Virus record (IMG/VR): IMGVR_UViG_3300047496_000083
Span: 1 to 42,049 of that record
DNA length: 42,049 bases
Direction: 5' to 3' (one strand)
Origin: a virus
In this document: in pieces, positions 5,714 through 23,267 of the stretch
Position numbering within the stretch: position 1 is the stretch's first letter
How the letters are laid out: each line of letters begins with the position of its first letter
Position numbers and translations under genes: made by a program
The notes under the pieces: generated by a model
The model's input: only the letters and a program-made list of their open reading frames with translations
Databases searched by the model: none
What the model was told of the DNA's origin: nothing

Positions 5714-5716
5714 TTG

Positions 5717-8203: not shown

Positions 8204-8451
8204 ACCCCGATAACGCCGCCATAAGGAGTTCTTATAAGGTATTCATGGAGAGTTTGGCTGGTAAAGATTTCCTCGCCCACCTCGTAACCTTAGAAGCCAC
8301 CTCTCAAGGACAAGGAATTAGAGCTGAGAGTACCGAAGTCAAAGCTCACGCTATGGAAAGAATCGGTGTTTACTACAACCTACGAACCTATCTATCAGAT
8401 ATGTCGAAACCTGCTCCGAGTGCGGCAAGTCGCTCCGCCGCCTCGGAATAG
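8200..8451 (+). CDS. Hypothetical head-module protein
   Basis: ORF track; GTG start in a GTGA overlap with the HNH stop. Confidence 0.5.
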   Translation: MNPDNAAIRSSYKVFMESLAGKDFLAHLVTLEATSQGQGIRAESTEVKAHAMERIGVYYNLRTYLSDMSKPAPSAASRSAASE

Positions 8452-8519
8452 TTTTTGAATACCTCTTGTGTTATTTTATAAACAGAGCGATATGTACTTC
8501 TAATTAAGAAAGGGTAACT

Positions 8520-9236
8520 ATGAAGCTTGAAACCACAACTTCAGACCCTGTAGACTCCGGCGCTGAAGAAGCACAACTGGACACACAGGAACAAGTCGAG
8601 GCGGTCACTAGTGAAGAAGATACCTCTCAATCCAGCGAATCAGAGGATAATGAGCCTTCGGAAGAAGATAACTCGGATGATACTGAACTCAAGGAATGGG
8701 CGGCTAAGAAAAATCTTCCACTAGATGACCCCATCAAACTAGCTAAAATGTATCGTGAAAGCGAGAAACAGTTAGGGAAAAAAGGTCTATCGGAAGGCCA
8801 ACTTAAAAGTGCGGTAACGGAAGCTAACACTTCAGCAGGGGTAGACGATATACAGTCCCTCCGCAACGAAGTAGCAGCGTTGAATTTTTATATGCAACAC
8901 CCCGAAGCCAAACAATATGAGGCCGAAATGGTAGAAATACTGGAAGAAAAACCGTGGCTAGGCTCCGATCTAGACGTCGTTTTAGACGTTGCTAAAGGTA
9001 GGGGAACAACCGAAGCCGCAAAATTAGACGCCGCAACGAAAGCTGGTAAGAAAGAAGCACTAGCCCAAGCAGAAACTGCTTCACGGGCTGCTCCGCCTCG
9101 AACCGCCGCTAATCAGGGTTCACAACAAGGAAGTAACAAAATTACTTTTGATAATGTAGACCAACTCATCGCTAAAAACGGCCAGAAATGGTTTGTTGAG
9201 CACCGAGACGAGATCAACCGAGCACTCGAGGGTTAA
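8520..9236 (+). CDS. Scaffolding-like protein
   Basis: Very acidic N-terminus, helical charged composition, and position immediately before the capsid gene; SD AAGGG. Confidence 0.5.
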   Translation: MKLETTTSDPVDSGAEEAQLDTQEQVEAVTSEEDTSQSSESEDNEPSEEDNSDDTELKEWAAKKNLPLDDPIKLAKMYRESEKQLGKKGLSEGQLKSAVTEANTSAGVDDIQSLRNEVAALNFYMQHPEAKQYEAEMVEILEEKPWLGSDLDVVLDVAKGRGTTEAAKLDAATKAGKKEALAQAETASRAAPPRTAANQGSQQGSNKITFDNVDQLIAKNGQKWFVEHRDEINRALEG

Positions 9237-9258
9237 CAACTTTTAACCGGAGAATACA

Positions 9259-10134
9259 ATGGCAACAGTTACTGGCGCTTACGGCGCAGGTAACGTAAAC
9301 ATTGGTGTTACTGCTGGTAACGTATTTCGTCCTAATGTCTGGTCTAGCGAAGTTCTTATGTTTGTTAAAGCAAACCTAGTTCTTCTACCTTTGGTCCGAC
9401 ACTACGATGCTGAAATACAGGCTTACGGCCAGACTGTAGAAATTCCTAACGTCTCTACTATCACCGCAAACCTCAAATCCCAGAACACCTTGGTTACGTT
9501 AAACTACAATACCGAGACTAAGACCACCATCACTATCAACAAGCACTACGAATCATCGTTCTTGCTAGAAGATATTGAGAAAATTCAAAGTAAATACGAC
9601 CTACGCACCGATTACACGCAGGCAGCCGCCTACGCTATCGCCGCCAAAGTCGATAACATTCTAGCTACTGACATGACCAACAGCTTTACCGCTTACGGTA
9701 CATTCGGTGTTCCGCTAAATGATACTTTGATCTTAGCTGTCAACCGTTACTTGGATGACGCTAAAGCCCCACAGACCGATCGTGCTTTCGTTGTTACCCC
9801 ACAAGGTAAACAAGAAATGCTCGCTATCGACAAATACATCCGTTACGACGCCCTAGGCATCGGCGGAGACAAGAACAGCATTGTAAATGGTCAGATTGGT
9901 ACTATTTATGCGTTAGACGTTTATATGAGCCAGAACCTAGTTCAGGTGACTACAAACCCTAACCAGAACAACCACCTCCTGTTCCACAAAGATGCTTTCG
10001 CAATCGCTATGCAAGAAAACCCACGTACTCAGGCTTCCTACAAGCAGGAATACCTAGGTTGGCTTGTAACAGTCGATGTTTTGTTCGGTGACATCGCTCT
10101 ACGCCCAAGCTTCGGCTTCGTTGTAAAGTCCTAG
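9259..10134 (+). CDS. Major capsid protein
   Basis: 291 aa. SD GGAG. N-terminal …NVFRPNVWSSEVL…GQTVEIPN… resembles capsid families. Followed by a strong terminator. Confidence 0.7.
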   Translation: MATVTGAYGAGNVNIGVTAGNVFRPNVWSSEVLMFVKANLVLLPLVRHYDAEIQAYGQTVEIPNVSTITANLKSQNTLVTLNYNTETKTTITINKHYESSFLLEDIEKIQSKYDLRTDYTQAAAYAIAAKVDNILATDMTNSFTAYGTFGVPLNDTLILAVNRYLDDAKAPQTDRAFVVTPQGKQEMLAIDKYIRYDALGIGGDKNSIVNGQIGTIYALDVYMSQNLVQVTTNPNQNNHLLFHKDAFAIAMQENPRTQASYKQEYLGWLVTVDVLFGDIALRPSFGFVVKS

Positions 10135-10145
10135 TTCTAATAAAA

Positions 10146-10178
10146 AAGAGGGTTTTCTTACAGAAGCCCTCTTTTTAT
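10146..10178 (+). terminator. Rho-independent terminator after the capsid gene
   Basis: Stem gagggttttc / agaagccctc (with G-U pairs), loop ttac, then TTTTTAT. Confidence 0.7.
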
Positions 10179-10180
10179 AT

Positions 10181-10197
10181 TGTATAATTAGCTTATG
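10181..10197 (+). promoter_or_regulatory. TGTATAAT, 6-nt spacer, ATG (leaderless-type promoter candidate)
   Basis: TATAAT at 10183-10188, tagctt, ATG at 10195, directly after the terminator. Confidence 0.4.
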
Positions 10198-10477: not shown

Positions 10478-10750
10478 ATGGAAGATAATCAACCGGCACG
10501 AGACGCACAAGGACACTTTGTATCACAATCTGATTCAGACAATAACCCAGACAACAACACAATGCCTTATGGAGCAGACCAAGTTCAACCAAAAGCAAAG
10601 GTCAAGCAAGAATCAGCCCGTGAGTTCGCAGAACGAGGCATCGTAGAAAAACACGGTGAAGCTATTAGACAAAATCCCCAGTTCGATGAACTAGTCAAGA
10701 GAGAAATGGCCCAGGTTGCTGAGAACCAACGCAACACTGAAGGAATGTAA
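10478..10750 (+). CDS. Hypothetical protein
   Basis: ORF track; SD AGGAG. Confidence 0.5.
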   Translation: MEDNQPARDAQGHFVSQSDSDNNPDNNTMPYGADQVQPKAKVKQESAREFAERGIVEKHGEAIRQNPQFDELVKREMAQVAENQRNTEGM

Positions 10751-10950
10751 TGGACTTCTCATATCTAGCGGCTCAGGTGGCTGATGGAGCCAAACAACCG
10801 ATACAACCAGGCGAAAGCCTGCTTAGCATAGCAATTAGAAGCGTAATTGAATCTAATAGTGCTACTATCACTTCTAATCCAAACTACAATGCTTTAGTAG
10901 CCGATAAAGAAGCTCAGATAACCGACAATTTAGATGGTAAAATAGGATAA
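10750..10950 (+). CDS. Hypothetical protein
   Basis: ORF track; TAATG overlap with the upstream ORF. Confidence 0.45.
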   Translation: MDFSYLAAQVADGAKQPIQPGESLLSIAIRSVIESNSATITSNPNYNALVADKEAQITDNLDGKIG

Positions 10951-10963
10951 TTAAGGAAAAATA

Positions 10964-11176
10964 ATGGCACAACTAATCACCCCCAACCCAAACGGAGATA
11001 CTCCGAAAGTAATCGAGGATAAGACTCGAGCCCTACCAGCTAATCAGGGTCTTAACAACTACGATATGTGGTTAAAGATAGACGCTGAAATAGCCGCCGC
11101 CCGTACAGCTAACAAGATTAACGAGAACGTTATTTACCCTCCAGCCACTACCGGCAACAAACACGGCAACAAGTAG
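10964..11176 (+). CDS. Hypothetical protein
   Basis: ORF track; SD AAGGA. Confidence 0.45.
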   Translation: MAQLITPNPNGDTPKVIEDKTRALPANQGLNNYDMWLKIDAEIAAARTANKINENVIYPPATTGNKHGNK

Positions 11177-11278: not shown

Positions 11279-11593
11279 ATGAGTAGTCCATTAAAGTACG
11301 ACGCCAACATCAAGGAAGAGTTTGGCATTAAGAGTTCGCTTGACCTTGATGACCAATTAAAGTTAGGTTTTGTCCGTTCACAGTTCGATGAGCTTAAAAA
11401 AATGCTGTGGCGCACCAGAGTAGAACTTCAACTCGCAGAAGCCCAAACTAAAACAGAGGTAGAGGCTATGGCGGCCGACGCCCGAAATAAGATCGCCGCC
11501 CACCGAAACGACATTAAAGGTTATGTTCGAGGTCTTAACGTACTGCAAGGCTTCATAGATGAACTCGACACTAGCAATCGTACTTCCAAGTAG
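11279..11593 (+). CDS. Hypothetical coiled-coil protein
   Basis: ORF track; SD AAGGAG. Confidence 0.5.
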   Translation: MSSPLKYDANIKEEFGIKSSLDLDDQLKLGFVRSQFDELKKMLWRTRVELQLAEAQTKTEVEAMAADARNKIAAHRNDIKGYVRGLNVLQGFIDELDTSNRTSK

Positions 11594-12362
11594 GGGGTTA
11601 CTCTTTAGCAAGACCCTTGAAGATCTGTTAAGGGAGCTTAAGGGTTTTAAGTATAAGATCTTTTGGTCGCATGAAAGATCACTACCCGAGTGTTTTAATA
11701 TCCCCACCGAAGAGGCGTTAGCCGACCCAGAGGTATTCGCAGTACTATTCTGCGAGGATGACATGATACTGCCTAAAGGCATTCTGCAGGAGATGTTCGA
11801 TAAAAAATATCCTGTAGTAGCCTTGGACTACCCCTTTCAGCAAGACGGCGACGCTACCACCCTACACGACCCCGAAGGAATGGCGTTTTGGACAGGCACG
11901 GGCTTTATGCTCGTAGCAAGACAGATACTTGAAAACATCCCTAAACCTATCTGGCAAACTGGCAGGACGTTTGACCCCTTCGTAGACACCGATACGCTCC
12001 ACTTCTGGCCCAGAAAGCTGAATAAGACTTATTACGGATTACATGACCTAAACTTTGGCCTAACCCTTTACTCAGCTGGTGTTCCGATTATGGTTATGGA
12101 CAGAACCGCAGGACAGCACAAACTTAAGAAGATGGGCGGAATAAACACCAATATAGGGGCGCACGACATTTATGATCTAACCGAGGTAGGCAGGGATATA
12201 GTCAGTGGAATGGTAGACCAAGAAAACTCCAGTTTATTCTTAGGAGCACTTAATAGGGTTAAACATGTGAAGTTCTGGGAAGATATACCACCATTTATAT
12301 CTTATGACGACAAACAACAACCCTACCTGAATGATGGCAGAGAAGCGAGTGTGGTGAAATGA
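11559..12362 (+). CDS. GT-A-like glycosyltransferase, paralog 1
   Basis: IVLPSRGLLFSKT… plus an EDD (DxD-like) motif, CEDDMILP. Clear paralog of the 12490..13302 product. Confidence 0.55.
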   Translation: MNSTLAIVLPSRGLLFSKTLEDLLRELKGFKYKIFWSHERSLPECFNIPTEEALADPEVFAVLFCEDDMILPKGILQEMFDKKYPVVALDYPFQQDGDATTLHDPEGMAFWTGTGFMLVARQILENIPKPIWQTGRTFDPFVDTDTLHFWPRKLNKTYYGLHDLNFGLTLYSAGVPIMVMDRTAGQHKLKKMGGINTNIGAHDIYDLTEVGRDIVSGMVDQENSSLFLGALNRVKHVKFWEDIPPFISYDDKQQPYLNDGREASVVK

Positions 12363-12493
12363 CCGTTAATAAAAAACAACTCGAGAAGTTAAAATCAGAA
12401 TCTACATTCGTCAGATTCGATGGACATAAGTACGTTAAGGGCTTAGGAAGCTTAGTCGGTCTGTGGAATGGCGAAGAGGTGTATTTGAAGTGA
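12359..12493 (+). CDS. 44-aa micro-ORF coupled on both sides (below the track cutoff)
   Basis: ATGA overlap with the upstream stop and GTGA overlap with the downstream start. Hand translation: MTVNKKQLEKLKSESTFVRFDGHKYVKGLGSLVGLWNGEEVYLK. Confidence 0.4.
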   Translation: MTVNKKQLEKLKSESTFVRFDGHKYVKGLGSLVGLWNGEEVYLK

Positions 12494-13302
12494 AGATTGC
12501 AGTCATTTTCCCCTCTAGGGGGTTAGTGTTTAGCCGTACGGCGGAAGAACTCTTGAATAACCTTGAGGGCTATGAATACGACATCTTCTTCTCCCACGGG
12601 CTACCTATTCCAGATTGCTTTGAAAAACCTGTCCTAGAGGCCTTAAAAGACCCCACATACACACATTTATGGCTAGTAGAGGACGATATGATACTCCCAG
12701 ACGGAACGCTAGACTCCCTACTCATAATGGACGCCCCTGTAGCCACTATGGACTATCCTGTAAGTAAAGAAGGCCAAGGAACAGTCTTTGAGGTGGGTGG
12801 AAGAGTTATATTCTCGGGTACGGGCTGTCTTTTGATTAAACGAGAGGTATTTAACTTCCTGAATAAGCCTTACTTTAGGGCGGACGTTAAGTGGACACCA
12901 ACCAACTTTGGTAAGTTTATACGCTTTACCGCCTCAGAGAGCACCCGTCTAGACGCTTACGGGCTACATGACGTTACATTCGGCCTCAAGCTCTTTAAAG
13001 CCCAAATACCTATCTCAGTCGCTGGGACGATAGGCCAACGTAAACTCAAGGCTCTAGGTAAAGCTGGGACTAACGACGGCGCACACCAGATAGAGGAGTG
13101 GAATAAGGTTAAAAAAGACTTCCTGCTTAAGACCTACAAGAAATTCCCAGTCCAACCCACAGGCAAGTTAATAACTATCAAAACTCCTGAGGGCGAGATA
13201 ACCACTCACCCCGACTTCGCAAAGAAACTTATCGCCCAGAACAAAGCTACTGCCATGCCCAGACAGCCGTTTGTAGTGGATTACGGGGAGATACTGCTAT
13301 GA
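12490..13302 (+). CDS. GT-A-like glycosyltransferase, paralog 2 (track ORF starts at 12463; GTG at 12490 preferred)
   Basis: VKIAVIFPSRGLVFSRT…VEDDMILP…YGLHD…GQRKLK aligns with paralog 1 from its first residues. Confidence 0.55.
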   Translation: MKIAVIFPSRGLVFSRTAEELLNNLEGYEYDIFFSHGLPIPDCFEKPVLEALKDPTYTHLWLVEDDMILPDGTLDSLLIMDAPVATMDYPVSKEGQGTVFEVGGRVIFSGTGCLLIKREVFNFLNKPYFRADVKWTPTNFGKFIRFTASESTRLDAYGLHDVTFGLKLFKAQIPISVAGTIGQRKLKALGKAGTNDGAHQIEEWNKVKKDFLLKTYKKFPVQPTGKLITIKTPEGEITTHPDFAKKLIAQNKATAMPRQPFVVDYGEILL

Positions 13303-14030
13303 AACTACTTATATGCCTAATTACTTATAACCGTATGGAATATACGAAAAGAACCCTAAAATCCCTCAGATGGTGGTTAGGTGAAGAGACTGACTACTAC
13401 ATCATAGTCGTAGACAACGCCAGTACAGATGGAACCAAAAAGTACATAAAGGGGCTTGAAGAACGGGCCATGATAGATTCTTATATCTTAAATGATGAGA
13501 ATTACTATCCGGGTAAGGCTTGTAACATGGGCTGGGAAGAAGGGCTGAAACACTATGAAGCCACGCACTTAATGCGATTAGATAACGATATGGAGTTTAA
13601 AAAGGGCTGGTTTGATAAGGTAGAGGATTACTTTAGAGCTATACCAGAACTAGGCCAGTTAGGGCTTGACCATGAGGCTATAGAGGCTCCAGAGGCAGAT
13701 ATGCGTAAACGCACGATTAATGGAATGACTATTAATGAATGGCCCGGTTGTGTTGGCGGCCCATGTGTTATCCCTCGTTCTATCTGGGACTTTGGACTTA
13801 GATGGCCGGAAATGAAGTGGGACGATGATAGAAACTCGCCAGCCCAAGAAGACTCAGCTTTTAGCAGAGCAATCATGGACAGGGGCTATCTGGTCGGACA
13901 CGCCCAACCTGAAATAGCTAGAACTTTCGCCAATAAAAGTAACTGGCACGAACAGAAGGAGTATTACTTAAAGACTATGAGCGACAGGGGTTATCAAGAA
14001 CATGTAGACTACCTGAAAGGACTTAAATGA
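13299..14030 (+). CDS. Family-2-type glycosyltransferase
   Basis: LICLITYNRMEYTKRTLKSL…VVDNASTDGT is the canonical GT2 N-terminal signature; DND further on; ATGA coupling. Confidence 0.75.
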   Translation: MKLLICLITYNRMEYTKRTLKSLRWWLGEETDYYIIVVDNASTDGTKKYIKGLEERAMIDSYILNDENYYPGKACNMGWEEGLKHYEATHLMRLDNDMEFKKGWFDKVEDYFRAIPELGQLGLDHEAIEAPEADMRKRTINGMTINEWPGCVGGPCVIPRSIWDFGLRWPEMKWDDDRNSPAQEDSAFSRAIMDRGYLVGHAQPEIARTFANKSNWHEQKEYYLKTMSDRGYQEHVDYLKGLK

Positions 14031-14653
14031 AAGTATCAGTTTTACTTCCTACTAGAGAACGTGCTCAGATGTGCAAAGAAGCTATCGATAGTCTAGGCGA
14101 TGGTGATTTTGAAGTCTTACTTTACGTGGATACTGATGACCCCCAGATCAAAGCTTATAGAAGTTTGGCATCTAGAAAAGTGAAGGTTTTCGTAGAGGCT
14201 CGGTTAGGCTATGCGAACTTTCATAGAATGGTCAACTTCCTAGCCAAGAAAGCTAAAGGTGAATGGCTCCTCTTGTGGAATGATGATATGCGGATTATAG
14301 GTGATTGGACAGTTCCTGACGCCACAGACAAACCCCAAGTACTTAACTTTTGGGACCCAAATAATCAGGTGAATAACCTAGCACCAGTGATAAGCCGTAA
14401 GATGTACGAGATTATGGGACACTTCAGCCTATCTACCCACTGTGATTCATGGGTACAGGATATAGCTAACGAACTCGGTATACACGTTCCAGTCCACGGA
14501 GCACAGGTCCAACACCTTAGAGAGTCCTTGAATGATGCGACAAAGTCGCAAACACAACCAGTTTACGCCACTTCCAGCCCTGAGTATGATGGTTTAGAGA
14601 TGATGAAATTAAGAGAAATAGATAAGGAGAAATTACGTGAAAATCTACTATGA
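14027..14653 (+). CDS. GT-A-like glycosyltransferase
   Basis: VSVLLPTRERAQMCKEAIDSL…LLYVDTDD…WNDD; ATGA coupling. Confidence 0.5.
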   Translation: MKVSVLLPTRERAQMCKEAIDSLGDGDFEVLLYVDTDDPQIKAYRSLASRKVKVFVEARLGYANFHRMVNFLAKKAKGEWLLLWNDDMRIIGDWTVPDATDKPQVLNFWDPNNQVNNLAPVISRKMYEIMGHFSLSTHCDSWVQDIANELGIHVPVHGAQVQHLRESLNDATKSQTQPVYATSSPEYDGLEMMKLREIDKEKLRENLL

Positions 14654-15449
14654 CCAAGCGGCCGACGTGTACTGCCAGATGTCCCACGCACTTTTACAAG
14701 GCTTTCACCAACTGGGCCATGAGGTTCAAAGTAACGTATACAACTACCCGTTCATTAAATCTATCGACAATCCAGACGTTAGAATCGCCAGCACATCAGG
14801 CAATATAAGCGCCCTCTATATGCCCTGTGACATCTTTATAGATGGGCGGGATCAGGCTGACATACAGACCGACTTTCAAGACCATCCGCTTTACTTTAAA
14901 AGCAACGGTAGCGAGAAACTTAAACTCCCAGCCTGCATGATGCCCCAGAAGTACGTAAGTCCAGAAGCCCCCAGAACCACTGAGATTATCTTCTTAGCAG
15001 GACACTCAGACTTTGGACGAGAGCACCTACAAGAAATTATCCCAGCCTCATTCGTGGATGGAGACAACCTCCCACTGGTTCCGCAGTACCCAGCAACCTC
15101 TTGCAATATGTACTCCGCTAAATATTACGACGCTCTAGCCAGCGCCAAAATATCCGTTAACGCTCCCGGCGGGAGTGCTAATACTAAGAAGTTCCATGAA
15201 ATAACCTCGCACGGCTGTCTAACGTTAAACTTTATCCCGCCAACCTATCACCAAACCACCCCTGACGTTTTAGACCTAATACCTGAAGATCTTAACTTCC
15301 CAAGACACGCAGTCTTAAACTTCCGAAATAAGGACGAGTTTGACCAGATAATGAAAGATCCACCCTACCATTTAGCCTGGGAGACGTTTGAATGGGCGAT
15401 GAACTGGAATCCTAAAGCTATGGCAAGTTACGTGCTGGGAAAACTATGA
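14637..15449 (+). CDS. Possible GT-B / CgeB-like glycosyltransferase
   Basis: C-terminal …KISVNAPGGSANTKKFHEITSHGCLTLNF weakly resembles Glyco_trans_1_2-type motifs. GTG start with SD AAGGAGA. Confidence 0.3.
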   Translation: MKIYYDQAADVYCQMSHALLQGFHQLGHEVQSNVYNYPFIKSIDNPDVRIASTSGNISALYMPCDIFIDGRDQADIQTDFQDHPLYFKSNGSEKLKLPACMMPQKYVSPEAPRTTEIIFLAGHSDFGREHLQEIIPASFVDGDNLPLVPQYPATSCNMYSAKYYDALASAKISVNAPGGSANTKKFHEITSHGCLTLNFIPPTYHQTTPDVLDLIPEDLNFPRHAVLNFRNKDEFDQIMKDPPYHLAWETFEWAMNWNPKAMASYVLGKL

Positions 15450-16180
15450 TTATAGGTAAAGACGGCTACATAGGAAGTGATCTAGAACTAGAGACTGAGG
15501 ATATAATCCTACTCGCAGGCCACTCAAGCGTTAAGATGGCCCAGAACGACCCTGACGGTGCGTGGATTAATAACGTGGAGTTCTTCAGATCTACCCTTAG
15601 TCAGGCTGAAAAGCTTATCTACGCATCTTCAGCGACCGTATATGACGGTCTTACTAACCCGACTGAGGACAATAACGCTTTTAACTTATCCAACGTCTAC
15701 AACCTTACTAAGCACACGATAGACCAACTCGCCCTGCTATCTGGTAAGAAGGTCTATGGACTACGCTTTGCAACTGTTTGTGGCTGGAGTTCTAACCTAC
15801 GAGTAGATGTGATGCTTAATAAAATGGTCTATGACGCTATAAATACAGGGAAGGTTCTAGTCAAAAACCGCCACATAGAACGACCTATCCTCGGAATTAA
15901 AGACTGCCACAGGGCTATAAAACACTTCGTAGAGAACGATTTAGAACCCGGAATCTATAACCTAGCTTCCTTCACAGCTTCGATAGATGATATGGCTAAA
16001 TACGTCGCCCAAGAGTTTAACGCCGAAGTTGTCTATGATGAGTACGACAATATCCCAGCTTACGCTTACGGGATAAACTGCGATAAGGTTAAATTTACGA
16101 GTTTCAGGTTCGAGGAAACACTGGAAAGTGTCGTCGATAGTTTAAAACAACCCTTTAAGAAAGTAGGAGTTAGAGAATGA
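15446..16180 (+). CDS. Short NAD(P)-dependent sugar epimerase/reductase (SDR family)
   Basis: GKDGYIG (GxxGxxG) at the extreme N-terminus and YNLTK (YxxxK); ATGA coupling. Confidence 0.6.
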   Translation: MIIGKDGYIGSDLELETEDIILLAGHSSVKMAQNDPDGAWINNVEFFRSTLSQAEKLIYASSATVYDGLTNPTEDNNAFNLSNVYNLTKHTIDQLALLSGKKVYGLRFATVCGWSSNLRVDVMLNKMVYDAINTGKVLVKNRHIERPILGIKDCHRAIKHFVENDLEPGIYNLASFTASIDDMAKYVAQEFNAEVVYDEYDNIPAYAYGINCDKVKFTSFRFEETLESVVDSLKQPFKKVGVRE

Positions 16181-17256
16181 GAATAAGTTATAGTCCCGAT
16201 ACGTTCGATGTTTACGGAGAAGAAGAAATACAAGCAGTAGTTGACAGCCTGAGAGACGGCTGGCTTGCGCCCGGAAAACGAGTAAAGGAGTTTGAAGAGA
16301 AGGTCGCTAAGTTATTCGGTAAAAAATATGGGGTAATGGTCAATTCGGGTTCGAGTGCTAATCTTCTGGCGGCCGAAGAATTACAAGGCCCCGTAGTAAC
16401 CCCAGCCCTAACCTTTGTAACCACCTACTCATACCTTAAACAGCCTGTCTTAAAAGATGTAGAAGAGGGAACTTACCAGATTAAATTCGGAGACATTCCA
16501 CCCGATAACTTTTTCGTGCCTAACCTACTGGGTAATATACCCGACTGGAAGAGCGTTAAACGCTTCAACACCGTAATAGTAGAAGATTCCTGTGACGTTA
16601 TAACGGACGCCGGTAAGAATGTTTCGGACATCACTACTACAAGTTTCTACTCCACCCATATGATTACTGCCGCCGGAGCTGGTGGAATGATTATGTGCAA
16701 CGATGCAAACATGTACGAACGATTCTTAAGCAAGCGAGCGTGGGGACGGCCTGTAGTGGACGAAAAGGACTTCGATAGACGCTTTGCCGGAGATTACGAC
16801 CTTAAGTTTCTATTCGAGAACAAAGGCCACAACTTACAGCCTATCGAACTACAGGCCGCTTTCGGGCTAGTTCAACTAGAGAAGTTAGATGAGATTAAGG
16901 ACAAGCGTTGGCAGGTGTTTGGTAAGGTTTATGATTTCTTTGAGCAGTATGAGGACAGATTTATACTACCTATAAGCCGACAAGGGGCTAATTGGATGAA
17001 CTTCCCGCTCACGATACGTGAAGGTATAGACCGCAAAGAGTTCTGTCGCTACCTAGAGGAGAACGACATCCAAACCCGCCCAATCTTTAGTGGTAACATT
17101 ACCCGCCAACCAGCCTTCAAAGACCAAGGAGTTCAAGACTTCCCAGTAGCCGATAAGATAATGAAAGATGGAATCCTACTAGGTTGCCACCAAGGGCTAA
17201 CAGACGACCACCTAGATTACATGTTTAGTAAGGTAAAGGAGTATTTAGATGTCTAA
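16177..17256 (+). CDS. DegT/DnrJ/EryC1-family PLP sugar enzyme with His at the Schiff-base Lys position (possible 3-dehydratase)
   Basis: FEEKVAKLFGKKYGVMVNSGSSANLLA, VEDSCD, and SFYSTHMITAAGAGG (His161 where family aminotransferases have SFhxxK). Confidence 0.8.
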   Translation: MRISYSPDTFDVYGEEEIQAVVDSLRDGWLAPGKRVKEFEEKVAKLFGKKYGVMVNSGSSANLLAAEELQGPVVTPALTFVTTYSYLKQPVLKDVEEGTYQIKFGDIPPDNFFVPNLLGNIPDWKSVKRFNTVIVEDSCDVITDAGKNVSDITTTSFYSTHMITAAGAGGMIMCNDANMYERFLSKRAWGRPVVDEKDFDRRFAGDYDLKFLFENKGHNLQPIELQAAFGLVQLEKLDEIKDKRWQVFGKVYDFFEQYEDRFILPISRQGANWMNFPLTIREGIDRKEFCRYLEENDIQTRPIFSGNITRQPAFKDQGVQDFPVADKIMKDGILLGCHQGLTDDHLDYMFSKVKEYLDV

Positions 17257-18430
17257 GATAGGCTTCATTGGTTTAGGAAAATTAGGCTTACCAGTTGCTT
17301 TAGCGATTGAATCCAGAGGCCATCAGGTCGCAGGTTATGACATTAACCCAGAGGTTGCTAACTATGTTGAGAATAAATACTACCCGTTTCAGGAAATAGG
17401 CATCGAAGAACTACTAGAAAACACCAAACTAAAAGTTGTTAATAGCGTCCTTCAAATCGCCCGGGACACCGATATTATCTTCCTACCAGTACAAACACCC
17501 CACGAAGCGAGATTTGAGGGTACTCAGAGACTCCCAGAGGAACGAGCTGACTTCGACTACGATTTTCTTAAAGCCGCCATTACGGATGTAGTTGAGGCGT
17601 GTAAGACACTAAAAGTAAAACGAACCCTAGTGGTGATTTCCACATGCCTGCCTGGAACCTTCAAGCGTGAGCTTAAACCCCTGCTTAATGAGTATGTGGA
17701 TTATGTCTATAGCCCCCAGTTTATAGCGATGGGCCAGGTCATAGATGACTATCTTAACCCAGAGTTTAACCTTATAGGGGTGGAAAGTGAAAAAGCCGCC
17801 GACCAACTAGAAAAGTTCTATAAGACTATAAATGATGCCCCTAACGTCAGAACAGACATCACCACAGCCGAAGGGATAAAAGTCTCCTATAACACATGGA
17901 TCACCGCCAAGACAGTCATAGCTAACGCTTGGGGCGAACTATCAGATAAACTCGGTATGAACTTCGACGACATATATAAAGCGTGGTCATTATCCACTAA
18001 ACGTCTTATCTCGCCTAGGTACATGAAGGCTGGTATGGGGGATGGTGGGGGTTGCCATCCAAGAGACAATATCGCCCTGTCACACCTAGCTAGCGAGGTT
18101 GGACTGTCGCATAACATCTTTGAAGACCTAATGGAAGCCAGAGAAGACTTTGAAGACTATCATGCCCGTCAAGCGATGGAAGCATCTAAGAAATCCGGAC
18201 TACCACTAGTAATATTGGGGCGGTCTTTCAAACCCGAGACACAGATCGAGACTGGAAGTCCAGCTATCTTAATGGCTAATCTGTTAAAAGAGTATGGTTA
18301 TCCGTTTGAGCACGTTGAAGACCTACCAGAATATAAGAAGGCCGTCTATTTCATCGCCACCAACCACGAACGCTATAAAGACATAGATTTTCCTGAAGGT
18401 AGCGTACTGATAATCCCCTTTCAAGGATAA
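17249..18430 (+). CDS. Nucleotide-sugar dehydrogenase (UDP-glucose/GDP-mannose dehydrogenase family)
   Basis: IGFIGLGKLGLPVALAI Rossmann motif and GMGDGGGCHPRDN catalytic-Cys motif. Confidence 0.8.
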   Translation: MSKIGFIGLGKLGLPVALAIESRGHQVAGYDINPEVANYVENKYYPFQEIGIEELLENTKLKVVNSVLQIARDTDIIFLPVQTPHEARFEGTQRLPEERADFDYDFLKAAITDVVEACKTLKVKRTLVVISTCLPGTFKRELKPLLNEYVDYVYSPQFIAMGQVIDDYLNPEFNLIGVESEKAADQLEKFYKTINDAPNVRTDITTAEGIKVSYNTWITAKTVIANAWGELSDKLGMNFDDIYKAWSLSTKRLISPRYMKAGMGDGGGCHPRDNIALSHLASEVGLSHNIFEDLMEAREDFEDYHARQAMEASKKSGLPLVILGRSFKPETQIETGSPAILMANLLKEYGYPFEHVEDLPEYKKAVYFIATNHERYKDIDFPEGSVLIIPFQG

Positions 18431-18448: not shown

Positions 18449-19300
18449 ATGGAAGACTTCCAGAAAGAAATAGACGACCAAGCCGCTCAAAAGGCTCAGG
18501 ATCAAAAAGAACTAGCCCTACAAGCTCAGGCTGTGGAGCGAACCAACGCCCTCATAAACGCTGTTACGAGTGCTACGAAGGCTTTAATGGCTTTCCAGGC
18601 TCAACACCAGCCCAAAGTCTCTGTGACGAATCAGAAAGACTTCCCCACCTCTATAAGCACCCCTGATGTACAAGAAGTAGTCAAAGCCCTAGAGAACCTT
18701 AAACAGCCCATTCTAGAAAACAAGATCGACCATACACCAGTAGTAGAAGCCCTAAGCAAGTTGAACGAGAGTATTTCTAAACTCCCTACCAGCTTCCCTG
18801 AAGCCCCAGAACCAGTCGAAGAAGTCACTGTCAAGAACCTAATTGACTACTCGAAAGAGTTCCAATCACTAGGCATAGCAATTAAAGGCATTGACGTTAA
18901 GCCTGTCGTTAATATCCCTGAAGACAAACCTGACGACTACAGCCCAATTATAGATTCCTTAACTAAGGTTATGGACGCTATTAAAGCGATTGAGATACCT
19001 AAGGTCCCGAAGACCGACCTAACACCACTAGTAGACGCCACCCAAGCAGTCCAAGACACTATAAATAACCTTAAGTTCCCGGTTCCCAACTATATTCTCC
19101 CGTATGCAGATACTAAAGGGGTGGCCACCCAAGCACCCGTACCGATTCTAAGTAAGGCTTATGACGAGATTGACTGGTCAAATCCTGACGGTAACGGAAA
19201 CTATCAAACCATCACCACGAAGTCAGGCGGAGTTGCCAAGCAAAGCCTTAGCCTAACCTTTGACGGATCGAATAACGTAACCAGTATTGTTAGAAATTAA
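18449..19300 (+). CDS. Hypothetical structural protein
   Basis: ORF track; TAGTATAC motif upstream. Confidence 0.45.
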   Translation: MEDFQKEIDDQAAQKAQDQKELALQAQAVERTNALINAVTSATKALMAFQAQHQPKVSVTNQKDFPTSISTPDVQEVVKALENLKQPILENKIDHTPVVEALSKLNESISKLPTSFPEAPEPVEEVTVKNLIDYSKEFQSLGIAIKGIDVKPVVNIPEDKPDDYSPIIDSLTKVMDAIKAIEIPKVPKTDLTPLVDATQAVQDTINNLKFPVPNYILPYADTKGVATQAPVPILSKAYDEIDWSNPDGNGNYQTITTKSGGVAKQSLSLTFDGSNNVTSIVRN

Positions 19301-19338
19301 ATAACTGATATGCTTAAATTAAAGAAATAGAGGATATA

Positions 19339-19563
19339 ATGCCCGAGAAAGTCACTAAAGAAGAAAAAGAGTTTACCGTAACCCACGAAGATGGTAGTAC
19401 ATCTGTCGTAAAAGGCCAAATTACAACTACCGACCATGGTGTAACTGATGAAGACGGATTTCCTAAAATCAGCGTACATATTAACGCCCCTGTCGCCACA
19501 GGAAGAACAGCCGAAGAACTAGAAGCAGATAGATTAAAAGAATTATTTAGAGAGGACAAGTAA
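19339..19563 (+). CDS. Hypothetical protein
   Basis: ORF track; SD AGAGGA. Confidence 0.45.
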   Translation: MPEKVTKEEKEFTVTHEDGSTSVVKGQITTTDHGVTDEDGFPKISVHINAPVATGRTAEELEADRLKELFREDK

Positions 19564-20015
19564 TGGCAGTAGTAACGCATCTGTATGATGCCATCATCAA
19601 CGGATTTTTAACGAAGGCTAATAGTTGGACTGCTGATACAGTCAACTGTGCCCTGTTCTCAGCCTCGACCTTCACGCATGGCGACGCCGCCTACAATACA
19701 AGCGGTACCGAAGTAGCGTCAGCCAACGGCTATACAACAGGCGGCGGTGCAGTCGGAACTAGGACAATCTCCGCCGCTACAGTAACTCCACAGTTATGTA
19801 AGATCACAGGTGCATTCGGTGGTGGATCGGCCGGAACAACTACATGGACAGCTACAGGCGCAGGTTTTACAGCCGTAGCCGCAAAACTTTACGTCGTATC
19901 TGGTTCACCTATCTGTAATGTAGACTTCGGTGGATCACAAACCGCATCCGGTGGTGGCACATTTGTAATAACATGGGACGCCACGAACGGAGTCTTTAAC
20001 GCAGCGAGTAGCTAA
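19563..20015 (+). CDS. Hypothetical virion protein
   Basis: ORF track; TAATG coupling; Gly/Thr/Ala-rich composition. Confidence 0.5.
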   Translation: MAVVTHLYDAIINGFLTKANSWTADTVNCALFSASTFTHGDAAYNTSGTEVASANGYTTGGGAVGTRTISAATVTPQLCKITGAFGGGSAGTTTWTATGAGFTAVAAKLYVVSGSPICNVDFGGSQTASGGGTFVITWDATNGVFNAASS

Positions 20016-20077
20016 TATGGATAAAATTAAACGACTCAATCGGGTAGGAATACCTGTCGAGTTAGGAGGATATTCAA

Positions 20078-20632
20078 ATTAGTCGTCAGTTTTGGTCAGA
20101 AACACTAACATGGGCAACAGCTTCTGGTACATCGGTAAACTCGGCCAACGTAGAGACAATCCTATTTCCCAATGTAACGATACCGGCTAACTATCTACAG
20201 GATGGCCGCGCCTTGCGTATACGAGCCATCGGCCAGTGGACCACTACAGCCTCAACCCCAACCCTTATATTTAACTTACGTTGGGGCGGAGTAGCTGGTA
20301 CTTTACTTTGCAAAACCGCCGCTATAACTACAGTCGCCTCAACTACCGCCGCTATGTGGGACTTGGATATAATCGTCCAAACTAGAAGCAACGGTTCATC
20401 CGGTACCCTGATGGCCAACGGTACAGCTCGAGCCTTTGCTGGCGTGGCCGGTACTATCGCCTCGGCGACAGGTGAGGGTCTGGTAACTCCAATGACTAAC
20501 GGCGGTGTAATTACCCCTGCTGTAGCCACAGTAGACCTCACGGCCGATACGGCTCTGTCGCTAACCGTCACACCGTCAACCACAGCCGCCACTTTAATCG
20601 GTTTGAACTACACTATTGAGGCATTAAATTGA
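20078..20632 (+). CDS. Hypothetical virion protein; start uncertain (ATT at 20078 after AGGAGG, or TTG at 20213 as in the track)
   Basis: The frame is open from 20066. AGGAGG at 20064-20069 lies 8 nt (20070-20077) before the in-frame ATT. The upstream 45 codons read as plausible protein. Confidence 0.5.
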   Translation: MSRQFWSETLTWATASGTSVNSANVETILFPNVTIPANYLQDGRALRIRAIGQWTTTASTPTLIFNLRWGGVAGTLLCKTAAITTVASTTAAMWDLDIIVQTRSNGSSGTLMANGTARAFAGVAGTIASATGEGLVTPMTNGGVITPAVATVDLTADTALSLTVTPSTTAATLIGLNYTIEALN

Positions 20633-23252: not shown

Positions 23253-23267
23253 AGGAGGTGATGACTT

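Follow-up and report, generated by a model that had tools for sequence, protein, structure and literature searches.

The genes that follow the major capsid protein gene in this virus are best read as encoding a late, cytoplasmic system that glycosylates a virion protein, probably a capsid-associated one, with lineage-specific glycans, a reading given a probability of about one half. The genomic evidence on the glycan target leans towards the virion rather than the host envelope and proves nothing. The window, that is, the whole 42,049-nt stretch analysed (IMG/VR record IMGVR_UViG_3300047496_000083), holds a glyco-block of 6,872 bp, or 16.3% of its length, matching the one sixth of the genome originally predicted, with five predicted glycosyltransferases (G1, G3, G4, G5 and G6) and three predicted NDP-sugar enzymes (G7, G8 and G9) (Table 1). 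Profile and structure searches returned glycosyltransferase and sugar-enzyme family matches, with a GT-A fold for the G1 model, and these assignments bear out the expected combination of several transferases with NDP-sugar tailoring enzymes; the predicted enzyme content also supports a capacity for making and attaching a multi-sugar glycan.

Table 1. Features of the glyco-block and its flanks (positions in the window)
Feature	Position	Strand	Basis or remark
Major capsid protein	9259..10134	+	phrog_267 major head protein, 2.7e-37
Intrinsic-terminator-like hairpin, strong	10143..10176	+	14-bp stem then T-run, directly 3′ of capsid gene
104-aa ORF, function unassigned	11279..11593	+	35-nt overlap with G1 start
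G1, unannotated GT-A-fold family, clade-wide core	11559..12362	+	AF2 fold, Foldseek, E66-x-D68 (EDD) motif
Micro-ORF, 44 codons	12359..12493	+	scar-like, without orthologues in nearest relatives
G3, G1 paralogue with EDD motif, clade-wide core	12463..13302	+	39% identity to G1
G4, GT2 glycosyltransferase (VVDNASTDGT; DND)	13299..14030	+	PF00535 1.3e-13
G5, small GT2-like (GT-A) glycosyltransferase	14027..14653	+	first gene of type A cassette
G6, very rare family akin to CgeB-type Glyco_trans_1_2 (GT-B C-terminal domain)	14637..15449	+	transitive homology
G7, short extended-SDR NDP-sugar enzyme	15446..16180	+	PF01370 2.3e-10; GxxGxxG and YxxxK
G8, DegT-fold His-type 3-dehydratase	16177..17256	+	PF01041 1.6e-48; E1/RfbH/ColD-like
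G9, NDP-sugar 6-dehydrogenase, UDP-Glc/GDP-Man dehydrogenase family	17249..18430	+	catalytic-Cys motif GGGCHPRD
o18449, conserved right-flank gene	18449..19300	+	homologous to N-terminal ~250 aa of longer proteins

All nine ORFs of the original prediction are present in the window at the positions given, and eight of them are genuine genes under purifying selection: in the comparison with locus L034, pN was 0.17–0.25 and pS 0.78–0.90 for every one, and the identical eight-gene order recurs in L034, L045 and L049, all from other samples. The ninth, the micro-ORF that had been taken for a coupled gene, is most likely an insertion or duplication scar and not a conserved gene; L045 and L049 lack it, their G1 and G3 overlapping directly, L034, L005 and L013 have ORFs in this slot that show no relationship to it, and in the window ~130 bp are inserted, with a degenerate repeat of the 3′ end of G1 at the 3′ end of the insertion. 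The junctions from 12359 to 18430 are, as foreseen, ATGA, GTGA or short overlaps (ATGA at G1 to micro-ORF, G3 to G4, G4 to G5, G6 to G7 and G7 to G8; 17 nt at G5 to G6; 8 nt at G8 to G9), and with overlaps of 4–17 nt the proposal of one translationally coupled unit within the late structural region holds. The true start of G3 is probably GTG 12490, because the orthologues in L045 and L049 have 269–270 aa and G3, read from this start, would overlap the micro-ORF stop in a GTGA.

The terminator scan found no strong plus-strand terminator within the block; the hairpin behind the capsid gene is the sole one between 8 and 21.5 kb, and the downstream genes, including the glyco-block, may therefore be expressed by attenuated read-through. 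The block had been placed between head and tail genes: TerL, the portal, a scaffold-like ORF and the major capsid protein all lie upstream, but the tail side is weakly documented, with Ser/Thr-rich fibre-like ORFs downstream, one of which has a weak minor-tail match. The capsid protein, ~30% identical to those of podoviruses infecting filamentous cyanobacteria, is a candidate glycan acceptor. The 104-aa ORF is weakly conserved 5′ of G1 in most relatives. Homologues of o18449 in the relatives are proteins of 610–1128 aa that match only in the N-terminal region, suggesting that o18449 encodes a structural protein whose distal part varies. The host may belong to the Saccharibacteria, the group found in five of nine MAG matches.

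Regarding the transferases, G1 has no match in Pfam, PHROG or NCBIfam, and none of its at least 534 homologues is named; among the 120 matches listed, the contigs are no longer than ~42 kb. Its AF2 model (pLDDT 89.2) retrieved as top Foldseek matches STIV A197, the LH3 glycosyltransferase domain, COLGALT1, mimivirus R699 and GT-A-type phage proteins, with a PBCV-1 protein and Megavirus PLOD-like glycosyltransferase domains as further close folds, and the EDD motif, with E66 and D68 invariant, occupies the position of the DxD of GT-A enzymes. Since G3 is related to G1 at E = 8e-50, the two stand as the paralogous GT-A-like enzymes that had been proposed. G4 is the canonical GT2 enzyme expected (51.6 bits against a PF00535 cut-off of 23.3), and G5, described beforehand as another GT-A-like protein, is GT2-like through phrog_14945 glycosyltransferase (1.2e-9), its PF00535 match (0.002) being under the Pfam cut-off. 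The suggestion of a GT-B/CgeB-like protein is upheld for G6 by transitive homology, as seven of 11 family members match PF13524 (best 1.4e-9) and four match Exostosin GT47, but G6 itself has no direct Pfam match and its AF2 model is too poor to use (pLDDT 35); its homologues number four among 5.8 billion proteins and eight representatives among 1.84 billion.

The NDP-sugar enzymes point to a deoxy sugar and a uronic acid. G8 is, on sequence grounds, a 3-dehydratase of the E1/ColD group and presumably PMP-dependent: it matches NCBIfam RfbH at 3e-62, short of that model's cut-off, and in the PDB E1 (3bcx, 5.6e-47) and ColD (~1e-27), and the His of its motif SFYSTH161 aligns with E1 His220 in place of the catalytic Lys, a replacement present in 120 of 120 close homologues. 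The JGI product name is likewise CDP-6-deoxy-D-xylo-4-hexulose-3-dehydrase, whereas the Cys-rich Fe-S loop of E1 is missing, none of the 18 G8 homologues listed having Cys there. The anticipated DegT family is thus correct and can be specified as a His-type 3-dehydratase, which implies a deoxy rather than an amino sugar. With the His replacement and the grouping with E1 and ColD, G8 is not a DegT aminotransferase. G7 is an SDR, as proposed, but an incomplete one: PF01370 is covered at profile positions 68–240 only, residues 73–242 align with 133–306 of PDB 6vo6 (3.6e-6), and ~30–60 residues of the N-terminal Rossmann region are missing; its orthologues are similarly short (245–250 aa). The assignment of G9 as a nucleotide-sugar dehydrogenase is confirmed by the N-terminal (PF03721, 1.4e-23) and central (PF00984, 1.7e-15) UDPG_MGDP_dh domains, TIGR03026 (185.5 bits, cut-off 189.8), phrog_9148 (9.8e-77) and AlgD (PDB 1mfz, 4.2e-32), and its predicted product from the family is a uronic acid.

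Comparison with relatives indicates that the block is not the inserted island originally envisaged. Among 21 loci retrieved by the capsid protein alone and having at least 2.6 kb downstream, a G1-family gene lies 337–1754 nt past the capsid gene in all 21, and reciprocally the capsid gene adjoins G1 in each of the 12 G1-retrieved loci that reach upstream of G1. Capsid protein (67–78%) and G1 (52–73%; 35% in the short locus L023) are co-inherited, with G3 and G4 likewise still similar, in relatives with portal and scaffold down at 26–40% and an undetectable TerL, and the tandem G1-like/G3-like pair is kept even at a capsid identity of just 53%. G4 homologues (50–69% identity) occur in nearly all closer relatives and in none of L025, L027 and L028; the distant L027 and L028 keep G1 and G3, but neither G4 nor any of the compared cassette genes has a homologue there. 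The comparison thus supports a core physically tied to the capsid gene, made of G1 and G3 clade-wide and of G4 among the closer members, where G4 forms the left border of a variable cassette. Between G4 and the o18449 homologue there are at least five cassette types, and G5–G9 (type A) is, judging from these loci, one of at least five exchangeable sugar cassettes; G5 orthologues were found in L034, L045 and L049 only. Cassette type does not track capsid similarity, L002 (capsid 87%) having type B and L034 (86%) type A. GC is uniform throughout (~0.44–0.45), and there is therefore no compositional island.

In the mechanism proposed, these genes would form a two-layer phage glycosylation system, expressed late and acting in the cytoplasm. 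The first layer would be the capsid-linked GT-A-fold pair G1 and G3, joined in closer relatives by the GT2 enzyme G4, and the second the exchangeable cassette, which would determine glycan composition. In type A this would add the transferases G5 and G6; G9 would oxidise an NDP-hexose at C6, giving a uronic acid, G8 would act as a ColD-like 3-dehydratase, and the short SDR G7 would turn a 4-keto sugar into one of the 3-deoxy or dideoxy type. The block has neither a nucleotidyltransferase nor a 4,6-dehydratase, so the 4-keto intermediate would presumably come from the host; this incompleteness of the G7/G8/G9 pathway was counted against the best reading. A 6-dehydrogenase and a 6-deoxy pathway are incompatible on one and the same sugar. 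The transferases would then assemble a short hetero-oligosaccharide straight onto a protein acceptor during particle assembly, most likely a capsid or capsid-associated protein and possibly the Ser/Thr-rich fibres too, yielding a lineage-specific glycan coat.

The main rival, distinctly less probable, is that unusual NDP-sugars are placed on a host surface polymer during infection or lysogeny, whether a teichoic-acid-like polymer, a wall polysaccharide or an S-layer or pilus glycan, masking receptors (against superinfection, and to free progeny from lysed cells) or altering episymbiont adhesion. No block product has a TM segment (maximum KD19 1.47), and the profile search found no initiating phosphoglycosyl transferase, flippase, polymerase or ligase among them; the lack of TM segments and of an export route was counted for a virion target. 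TarM, TarS and the prophage-encoded TarP are, however, soluble glycosyltransferases that act on wall teichoic acid, and because such enzymes modify lipid-linked wall polymers, a host target is compatible with the lack of TM segments. O-antigen and capsule loci hold enzymes of these types, the closest cellular homologues of G8 among them (L046, L048), and studies of CPR phages take such nucleotide-sugar and glycosyltransferase genes to be auxiliary genes acting on the host surface (PMC12911398, PMC12647753). The type E cassette includes a cytidylyltransferase-like gene of PF01467, a family including teichoic-acid CDP-glycerol synthases, which favours a host polymer and was counted against the best reading, and o18449, with its conserved N-terminus and variable distal part, resembles a receptor-binding protein, so that cassette and receptor specificity could be swapped together. 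Against this, the block is coupled into the late structural operon instead of standing as a moron under its own promoter and terminator, the window showed no integrase or repressor, and the strict G1/G3–capsid linkage across portal and terminase replacements is hard to square with a host polymer.

A rather improbable alternative concerns mechanism and fits either target: G1 and G3 could be sugar-1-phosphate nucleotidyltransferases that turn two sugars into their activated NDP forms, with G9, G8 and G7 modifying these and only G4, G5 and G6 transferring. Their fold also resembles such enzymes, a point counted against the best reading, as Foldseek retrieves KdsB (rank 2, E = 5.4e-6), ADP-glucose pyrophosphorylase, RmlA, GlmU and cytidylyltransferases; the N-terminal PSRGLLFSKT loosely recalls the P-x-R...S-x-R/K loop of cytidylyltransferases, and this activity, otherwise absent from the block, is present in the cellular 3-dehydratase operon L048. 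Nevertheless, GT-A glycosyltransferases lead by E-value and target-normalised TM-score (A197 TMt 0.61 against 0.46 for KdsB), the BFVD top matches are GT-A-type (TMt up to 0.64), the invariant EDD residues sit at the DxD site, and in L027 and L028 activation-only G1 and G3 would feed no transferase. There is a very small chance that the genes merely top up nucleotide sugars for a metabolically reduced host, the block having no acceptor of its own, in keeping with the reduced metabolism of the likely host group (CPR/Saccharibacteria) and with the standing of such genes in the literature as auxiliary metabolic genes; but five of the eight encode transferases and not precursor enzymes, the core consists of transferases only, and among the matches listed the G1/G3 and G6 families are confined to phage-type contigs or extremely rare. 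Least probable is glycosylation of modified bases in phage DNA for restriction evasion, as with T4 glucosyl-hmC or the multi-sugar DNA glycans of Pyle et al. 2024. Viral glycosyltransferases, in some cases a set of them accompanied by genes for sugar nucleotides, do decorate DNA (as cited in PMC12619734), and all block enzymes are predicted to be soluble and cytoplasmic; however, the 42-kb window has no detectable thymidylate-synthase-like hydroxymethylase, base-modifying enzyme or phage DNA polymerase, and the genes belong to the late capsid module, where their linkage to the capsid gene is strict, and not to a group of replication genes.

Virion glycosylation, the preferred reading, may be set against known systems. 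The cellular locus L046 has flippases and Bac_transf, whereas the phage block has neither, and the nearest folds of G1 include viral and protein-modifying GT-A enzymes such as LH3 and COLGALT1. In mycobacteriophages, phage-encoded glycosyltransferases modify the capsid and tail-tube proteins (Freeman 2023, as cited in PMC12363180 and PMC12619734), but this precedent does not stand as a homologous system, tblastn of G1 and G4 against 50,697 phage records giving no match. The transferases of cluster F1 phages lie near the genome 3′ end, away from the capsid gene (PMC11256854), whereas G1–G4 adjoin it, and mycobacteriophage acceptors have a Ser/Thr-rich C-terminal tail, unlike the capsid protein here, which ends in FGFVVKS. 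If the preferred reading is true, phages of this clade coat their particles with lineage-specific glycans, and the observed cassette diversity, which resembles surface-antigen diversification, was counted in its favour; among Megavirinae, clade-specific clusters of 6–33 glycosylation genes serve the fibril glycans (PMC10117803).

The block inside the late structural region comprises five predicted transferases and three NDP-sugar enzymes coupled within the late operon, and it spans 6,872 bp, or 16.3% of the 42,049-bp window. All nine ORFs of the original prediction are present where it had placed them, and its overlap-type junctions are as it described, from 4-nt ATGA/GTGA contacts to 17-nt overlaps: ATGA overlaps link G1 to the micro-ORF, G3 to G4, G4 to G5, G6 to G7 and G7 to G8; the overlaps at G8-G9 and G5-G6 measure 8 and 17 nt, respectively; and a GTG at 12490, in a GTGA overlap, is a possible G3 start. 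The 44-codon micro-ORF between G1 and G3, which had been taken for a coupled gene, is rejected as such, since it is absent from the nearest relatives L045 and L049, where G1 and G3 overlap directly (L numbers designate loci retrieved from public data, mostly relatives of this phage). L034, L005 and L013 have ORFs in the same slot that are related neither to it nor to one another, and DNA alignment reveals here a ~130-bp insertion in the window, the 3′ end of which duplicates, in degenerate form, the 3′ end of G1; the micro-ORF is thus most likely a scar, and the block counts eight genes.

Upstream of the block lie, in order, genes for the small terminase subunit, TerL, portal, an HNH endonuclease, a scaffold-like ORF and the major capsid protein; downstream, the conserved 283-aa ORF o18449 is followed by several Ser/Thr-rich fibre-like ORFs, of which one weakly matches a minor tail protein, and further on by genes for a C1q-domain protein, a GH25 lysozyme and a CHAP-domain protein. 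A compositional island is ruled out by a flat GC content (~0.44-0.45). Scans of the window for RNA families (Rfam), tRNA and DNA tandem repeats gave none, and a near-identity DNA search with its 11-19 kb portion retrieved nothing from 50,697 phage records. Inside the block, no strong plus-strand terminator turned up in the scan, and the sole strong terminator-like hairpin on that strand within 8-21.5 kb lies directly 3′ of the capsid gene.

Several features of the surrounding late region were also recorded. The hairpin has a 14-bp stem and is followed by TTGTATAAT, an extended -10-like element 7 nt 5′ of an ATG, and the two may let transcription restart to give an almost leaderless message. 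In the stretch from the capsid gene to G1, two adjacent small ORFs are weak paralogues of one another and a 70-aa ORF is conserved at 53-83% in many relatives; these small ORFs could encode capsid-associated proteins. The largest antisense ORF (134 aa) is spurious, as stops interrupt it in every relative examined (L045, L034, L002 and L003). The structural region contains two HNH endonuclease genes, the minus strand encodes a NinG/Rap-like nuclease, and in L049 an HNH gene lies directly 3′ of the capsid gene, a distribution that suggests mobile homing-endonuclease insertions in the late operon.

Positions of the block genes and of the other features discussed, in the window and in related or compared sequences
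Feature	Sequence	Position	Strand	Assignment
HNH endonuclease gene	window	7757-8203		
Capsid gene	window	9259-10134	+	major capsid protein
Terminator-like hairpin	window	10143-10176	+	
Hairpin with TTGTATAAT	window	10143-10194		possible re-initiation
ATG after TTGTATAAT	window	10195		
Small ORF	window	10478-10750		
Small ORF	window	10750-10950		
70-aa ORF	window	10964-11176		
134-aa ORF	window	11378-11782	antisense	spurious
Whole block	window	11559-18430	+	
G1	window	11559-12362	+	predicted GT-A glycosyltransferase
Micro-ORF	window	12359-12493	+	probable scar
G3	window	12463-13302	+	predicted GT-A glycosyltransferase
G4	window	13299-14030	+	GT2
G5	window	14027-14653	+	GT2-like
G6	window	14637-15449	+	possible GT-B-like protein
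G7	window	15446-16180	+	short extended SDR
G8	window	16177-17256	+	predicted 3-dehydratase
G9	window	17249-18430	+	nucleotide-sugar dehydrogenase
o18449	window	18449-19300	+	right flank of block
Post-cassette gene region	window	18449-20632		
Post-cassette gene region	L034	8654-12040		
Post-cassette gene region	L005	16112-18256		
Post-cassette gene region	L013	12496-14598		
Post-cassette gene region	L049	12288-14447		
HNH endonuclease gene	window	20651-21157		
ORF before fibre repeats	window	22581-23252		
Fibre-like protein	window	23252-24377		
SD sequence AAGGAGG	window	23252-23258		
ATG of 8-codon ORF	window	23261		
ATT, start of open fibre frame	window	23268		
First ATG/GTG/TTG in fibre frame	window	23559		
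C1q-domain protein	window	27263-27697		probable fibre-tip or adhesin domain
GH25 lysozyme	window	34426-35274		
CHAP-domain protein	window	36647-37303	-	
NinG/Rap-like nuclease	window	38066-38452	-	
265-aa protein	window	39252-40049	-	possible Cas4/RecB-like nuclease
HNH gene	L049	3983-4465		
Cytidylyltransferase-like gene	L032	2256-2690		
Cytidylyltransferase-like gene	L013	11120-11689		
G9-like gene	LR756502.1	445222-446385		
G8-like gene	LR756502.1	456426-457577		

G1 and G3 are paralogues (39% identity, E = 8e-50) with no match in Pfam, PHROGs or NCBIfam, even at E = 5, and they belong to a family of at least 534 members, none annotated, whose contigs are all ≤42 kb among the 120 listed. 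The AlphaFold2 model of G1 (pLDDT 89.2, pTM 0.88) fits the single Rossmann-like α/β/α nucleotide-sugar-binding domain of the GT-A fold; Foldseek places STIV A197 (E = 2.9e-7, TMt 0.61) and the LH3 glycosyltransferase domain at the top of its PDB neighbours, which also include COLGALT1, mimivirus R699, β4GalT7 and GlfT2, all GT-A enzymes, and the top BFVD matches are GT-A-type phage proteins, a PBCV-1 protein and Megavirus PLOD-like glycosyltransferase domains. The acidic, DxD-type EDD motif is conserved in 44 sequences including both paralogues, with E66 and D68 invariant and D67 at ≥90%. From the model and the motif, G1 and G3 are predicted to be GT-A-fold proteins acting as glycosyltransferases, in agreement with the two paralogous GT-A-like enzymes originally proposed. 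Searches by tblastn with G1 and G4 gave no match in 50,697 phage records, so the core (G1, G3 and G4) is carried by no cultured relative.

The assignment of G4 as a canonical GT2 stands (PF00535, 1.3e-13; 51.6 bits versus a gathering threshold of 23.3), and G5 is GT2-like (PF00535, 0.002; phrog_14945, 1.2e-9), the glycosyltransferase support for G5 and G6 being weaker than that for G1 and G4. G6 has four homologues among 5.8 billion proteins and eight representatives among 1.84 billion, and itself matches nothing in Pfam, PHROGs or NCBIfam, even at E = 5. Seven of the 11 members of its family match PF13524 Glyco_trans_1_2 (best 1.4e-9) and four match Exostosin GT47; the earlier guess of a CgeB/GT-B-like protein thus has support through these relatives and extends to G6 by transitive homology only, with no direct Pfam match in G6. 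The AF2 model of G6, built from four sequences, was unusable (pLDDT 35), and the 11-sequence family profile found only a chance match among PDB sequences.

The three remaining enzymes had been recognized as a short SDR with GxxGxxG and YxxxK, a DegT-family enzyme and a nucleotide-sugar dehydrogenase with GGGCHPRD, and profile searches and motifs agree with these assignments, for G7 over part of the domain. G7 is a short extended SDR with GxxGxxG (GKDGYIG) and YxxxK (YNLTK), but its alignments are partial (PF01370 positions 68-240; PDB 6vo6 residues 133-306), and it lacks ~30-60 N-terminal residues of the Rossmann domain, as do its equally short orthologues. G8 has the DegT fold (PF01041, 1.6e-48) and its best matches are 3-dehydratases (PDB 3bcx (E1), 5.6e-47; NCBIfam RfbH, 3e-62; ColD, ~1e-27), with aminotransferases scoring far below; its His161 (SFYSTH) aligns with E1 His220, which is Lys in the H220K structure 3bb8, and His takes the place of the Schiff-base Lys in 120 of the 120 closest homologues. 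The [2Fe-2S] Cys motif is missing, the Cys-rich E1 loop being deleted and the loop Cys-free in all 18 sequences listed (G8 and 17 others), which makes the enzyme ColD-like rather than E1-like. G8 is predicted to be a His-type, E1/ColD-like NDP-hexose 3-dehydratase, presumably dependent on PMP; its JGI product name is CDP-6-deoxy-D-xylo-4-hexulose-3-dehydrase. An Ara4N-type pathway (Ugd, decarboxylating SDR and ArnB aminotransferase) was rejected because of this His in place of Lys and the far better 3-dehydratase scores. No 4,6-dehydratase partner that would provide G8 with a 4-keto-6-deoxy substrate was found in the block or the rest of the window, one being present in the cellular operon L048, so that the substrate of G8 either comes from the host or differs; the two SDRs of the same operon did not discriminate between dehydratase and reductase roles for G7, which is similar to neither. 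G9 belongs to the UDP-Glc/GDP-Man dehydrogenase family, with N-terminal PF03721 and central PF00984 above cut-offs, the catalytic-Cys motif GGGCHPRD present, TIGR03026 just short of its cut-off (185.5 versus 189.8) and the C-terminal domain PF03720 not detected. The best G9 match in the phage collection (44.7% identity) is in the uncultured 642-kb phage LR756502.1, which also has a G8 homologue (29.6%) ~11 kb away and may carry a related sugar cluster.

The capsid protein shares ~30% identity with its counterparts in podoviruses that infect filamentous cyanobacteria, and its search against IMG/VR retrieved 30 loci at 53-88% identity, together with one 34-residue end fragment at 94%. A G1-family gene lies 337-1754 nt 3′ of the capsid gene in 21 of the 21 capsid-retrieved loci with at least 2.6 kb downstream, and the capsid gene adjoins G1 in all 12 G1-retrieved loci reaching upstream of G1; the tandem G1-like/G3-like pair persists down to 53% capsid identity, at which G4 is missing. 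In many loci (L008 and L011-L023, compared with window positions 4016-10134), the capsid protein is 67-78% and G1 52-73% identical (35% in the short locus L023), while portal and scaffold are at only 26-40% and no TerL can be detected. Since the capsid gene, G1, G3 and G4 remain similar where portal, scaffold and TerL diverge, they behave as one co-inherited module, which is joined to differing packaging and portal modules. All eight genes are under purifying selection, with pN of 0.17-0.25 and pS of 0.78-0.90 against L034, these values being given instead of dN/dS because synonymous sites are saturated in this comparison. In the cultured Anabaena phage A-4L, used as outgroup, tail-protein genes directly follow the capsid gene, which places the glyco-block at the head/tail junction of the window clade; the identification of o18449 with those tail proteins was discarded, as no similarity was detectable.

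The interval between G4 and the o18449 homologue ranges from ~1.4 to 6 kb among relatives, and homologues of G5, G6, G8 and G9 were found in none of the first 33 loci. Cassette types were defined by Pfam scans of this interval. Type A, formed by G5-G9, occurs in the window, L034, L045 and L049; type B contains a GDP-Man-4,6-dehydratase-type SDR, more SDRs, a UDP-GlcNAc 2-epimerase, a SAM methyltransferase and two glycosyltransferases (L002, L012, L015/L044 and L043); type C, an SDR, a sugar C-methyltransferase and a small glycosyltransferase (L008, L020, L022, L036 and L041); type D, an SDR and a small GT2 (L005 and L040); and type E, a cytidylyltransferase-like gene, a small unknown ORF and a small glycosyltransferase (L032 and L013). 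Type A recurs in phages of other samples, with 61-76% (L034) and up to 86% (L045) amino-acid identity, and in further contigs. L002 is 87% identical in the capsid and 72% in o18449, yet has a type B cassette, and L034, with 86% in the capsid and just 43% in o18449, yet has type A, so that cassette type does not track capsid similarity, which indicates that cassettes are exchanged between conserved flanks. The type E cytidylyltransferase-like gene (144 aa) matches PF01467 (5.3e-18), a family that includes glycerol-3-phosphate cytidylyltransferases, so that some clade members may add a polyol-phosphate or CDP-activated unit. At the right flank, the similarity of o18449 to 610-1128-aa proteins of relatives is confined to their N-terminal ~250 aa, and the L049 version has a weak XepA match; in its constant N-terminus and variable distal part, the family resembles a receptor-binding or fibre protein beside the cassette.

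When the G1 profile was run against GTDB, with each species represented by a single genome, nine matches resulted (L036-L044), five of them in Candidatus Saccharibacteria MAGs, one on the 163-kb contig CAZDQS010000002.1, and the others in MAGs labelled Methylotenera, Limisphaerales, Bdellovibrionales and one unclassified bacterium. As phage contigs are often mis-binned, the Saccharibacteria link is a lead rather than proof, and the host is possibly a member of the Saccharibacteria/CPR bacteria. The 45% GC content and the GH25 and CHAP lysins, which fit a Gram-positive-type wall, are consistent with this lead, as are the nearest labelled cellular G8 homologues, most of them in Patescibacteria (~45%) and some in Actinomycetota MAGs (56%). 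The window as a whole showed no recognizable integrase, repressor or DNA polymerase.

Elsewhere in the window, a 265-aa product matches phrog_1706, 'CRISPR/Cas system associated' (2.1e-12), and is possibly a Cas4/RecB-like nuclease. The C1q domain (PF00386, 2.8e-11), unusual in phages, lies in a 144-aa protein and probably belongs to a fibre tip or adhesin. Some 14 repeats of about 20 aa each (ATLTFTGGTQ...) occur in the Ser/Thr-rich fibre-like protein, and the first ATG/GTG/TTG of its open frame falls well within them; a strong SD sequence lies 9 nt 5′ of an ATT at the beginning of the frame, the intervening ATG opens an 8-codon ORF in another frame, and the preceding ORF shares the frame of the repeats with three stop codons between. 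This arrangement suggests a non-canonical ATT start or a frameshift.

In the mechanism proposed, G1 and G3 would prime the acceptor and G4-G6 would extend the glycan, with G9 supplying a uronic acid and G8 plus G7 presumably converting a host-supplied 4-keto sugar to a 3-deoxy or dideoxy sugar. The candidate target, at about even odds, is a capsid-associated virion protein, favoured because the capsid linkage is strict and ancient, the position is in the late operon and the enzymes are soluble, no TM segments being predicted in any of the nine products; the protein-modifying and viral fold neighbours of G1 and the precedents of mycobacteriophages (PMC12363180 and PMC12619734, in the parts available) and giant viruses (PMC10117803) point in the same direction. 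Against a virion target, the capsid protein has no Ser/Thr-rich C-terminal tail, ending in ...RPSFGFVVKS with its richest Ser/Thr stretch internal (11 of 30 residues, around 66-95), and tblastn of G1 and G4 against the 50,697 phage records detected no sequence homology to the proven mycobacteriophage enzymes. Ser/Thr-rich fibre-like ORFs are present downstream, and a tail-tube gene was not identified in the window.

Remodelling of the host envelope by the block enzymes, the reading preferred for CPR-phage auxiliary genes in the available parts of PMC12911398 and PMC12647753, is the main rival, at perhaps one chance in four; the block gave no Pfam matches to an initiating phosphoglycosyl transferase, a flippase/exporter or a polymerase (Wzx/Wzy or ABC locus), in contrast to cellular loci with G8 homologues, which contain flippases and Bac_transf (L046) or the full set of nucleotidyltransferase, 4,6-dehydratase, 3-dehydratase and reductase (L048). 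G1 and G3 might themselves be nucleotidyltransferases, which would fit either target, since the fold is common to both classes and sugar nucleotidyltransferases are among the Foldseek matches of G1; these score lower than the glycosyltransferases, and the proposal is regarded as quite improbable. General metabolic supplementation of the host has very little probability, and DNA glycosylation is given slightly less still, as neither a base hydroxymethylase or other base-modifying enzyme nor a replication module was found among the ORFs scanned in the window with Pfam and PHROGs.

In summary, the block is read, with a probability of roughly 0.35, as a capsid-linked 'glycan serotype' locus in a large clade of uncultivated, probably podovirus-like, possibly Saccharibacteria/CPR-infecting phages, in which an ancient novel GT-A pair, inherited with the capsid gene, would prime a virion protein, and cassettes of tailoring enzymes and transferases would swap by recombination between conserved flanks to produce lineage-specific virion glycans; if true, phages would thereby have an equivalent of O-antigen diversification. 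The observation is solid and the pattern across the clade is striking, while the functional claim stays a prediction and the phage is uncultivated. To our knowledge, a few mycobacteriophages, with two to four genes, are the only phages for which virion self-glycosylation has been demonstrated. A virion target would mean that the trait is widespread among environmental phages, that it can include dedicated rare-sugar synthesis and that its evolution resembles that of a bacterial surface-antigen locus, with a constant core and exchangeable cassettes, which would imply strong diversifying selection on the particle surface; host or bystander lectins, defence systems, adsorption to non-host cells and particle stability are candidate forces. 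It would also provide a function for two protein families now without one, the G1/G3 GT-A family (hundreds of members) and the very rare G6, clonable candidates for phage-capsid glyco-engineering, and the first virion glycosylation system beyond actinobacteriophages with its own deoxy-sugar and uronic-acid synthesis. If the host envelope were the target instead, the locus would represent an unusual late-operon, capsid-linked form of receptor masking in phages of ultra-small bacteria.

The enzyme families involved are ordinary, and phage glycosyltransferases, nucleotide-sugar genes and mycobacteriophage virion glycosylation are already known. The literature searched yielded no description of an unannotated GT-A pair that a large environmental clade inherits together with its capsid gene, of such a pair combined with recombining, surface-antigen-like sugar cassettes in a 42-kb phage, or of a cassette composed of a His-type 3-dehydratase, a truncated SDR, a 6-dehydrogenase and a very rare GT-B-like protein. 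The virions of Che8, Corndog and Myrna are glycosylated by phage-encoded soluble glycosyltransferases, which generates a glycan shield (Freeman et al. 2023, Cell Host Microbe 31:1216, via the available parts of PMC12363180 and PMC12619734). Soluble phage glycosyltransferases acting in the cytoplasm on the phage's own structural proteins are thus common to both systems, proven there and proposed here. By sequence comparison, Che8 gp110 and Corndog gp38 have no tblastn-level homology to G1/G4; the mycobacteriophage acceptor is a Ser/Thr-rich C-terminal extension of a capsid or tail-tube subunit, which the window capsid lacks; and cluster F1 glycosyltransferases are near the genome 3′ end (PMC11256854, in part), whereas here they directly follow the capsid gene. 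The window block has, in addition, three NDP-sugar-modifying enzymes and a core-plus-cassette architecture, and its host is, as far as can be told, not actinobacterial, unlike those of mycobacteriophages.

The GtrABV clusters and prophage TarP, known for serotype conversion and wall glycosylation, are temperate-phage morons expressed in lysogeny, and Gtr proteins are membrane proteins; they share with the window block the phage-borne glycosyltransferases, which in their case alter a surface glycan, whereas the block is late-operon coupled and soluble, with lysogeny genes not detected in the window. Among giant viruses, chlorovirus PBCV-1 bears glycans on its capsid. Their likeness lies in clustered nucleotide-sugar pathways and glycosyltransferases with clade-specific content, Megavirinae fibril-glycan clusters comprising 6-33 genes (PMC10117803), and in rare bacterial-type sugars put on virion surface proteins, as proposed here; giant viruses, however, infect eukaryotes, whereas the window is a 42-kb tailed phage whose system is predicted from its genes, and the G1 likeness is at the fold level (8-18% identity). 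In CPR/Patescibacteria phages, nucleotide-sugar and glycosyltransferase 'AMGs' are listed gene by gene, with host adhesion proposed, and a capsid-linked GT-A pair, a core-plus-cassette locus or virion glycosylation does not figure in the available parts of these surveys (PMC12911398 and PMC12647753); the likeness resides in a possibly common host group and in the gmd, rmd, rmlB, rmlD and galE-type SDRs of cassette types B to D. Unlike bacterial O-antigen and capsule loci, among them those with 3,6-dideoxyhexose pathways, the phage block is devoid of a nucleotidyltransferase, 4,6-dehydratase, initiating transferase, Wzx/Wzy, ABC exporter and membrane proteins, the nearest cellular G8 homologue being in an operon (L048) with 4,6-dehydratase, 3-dehydratase, reductase, NTP-transferase and GT2; it nevertheless shares with those loci the same enzyme families (RfbH/E1, ColD and Ugd) and a variable set between conserved genes that is exchanged among lineages.
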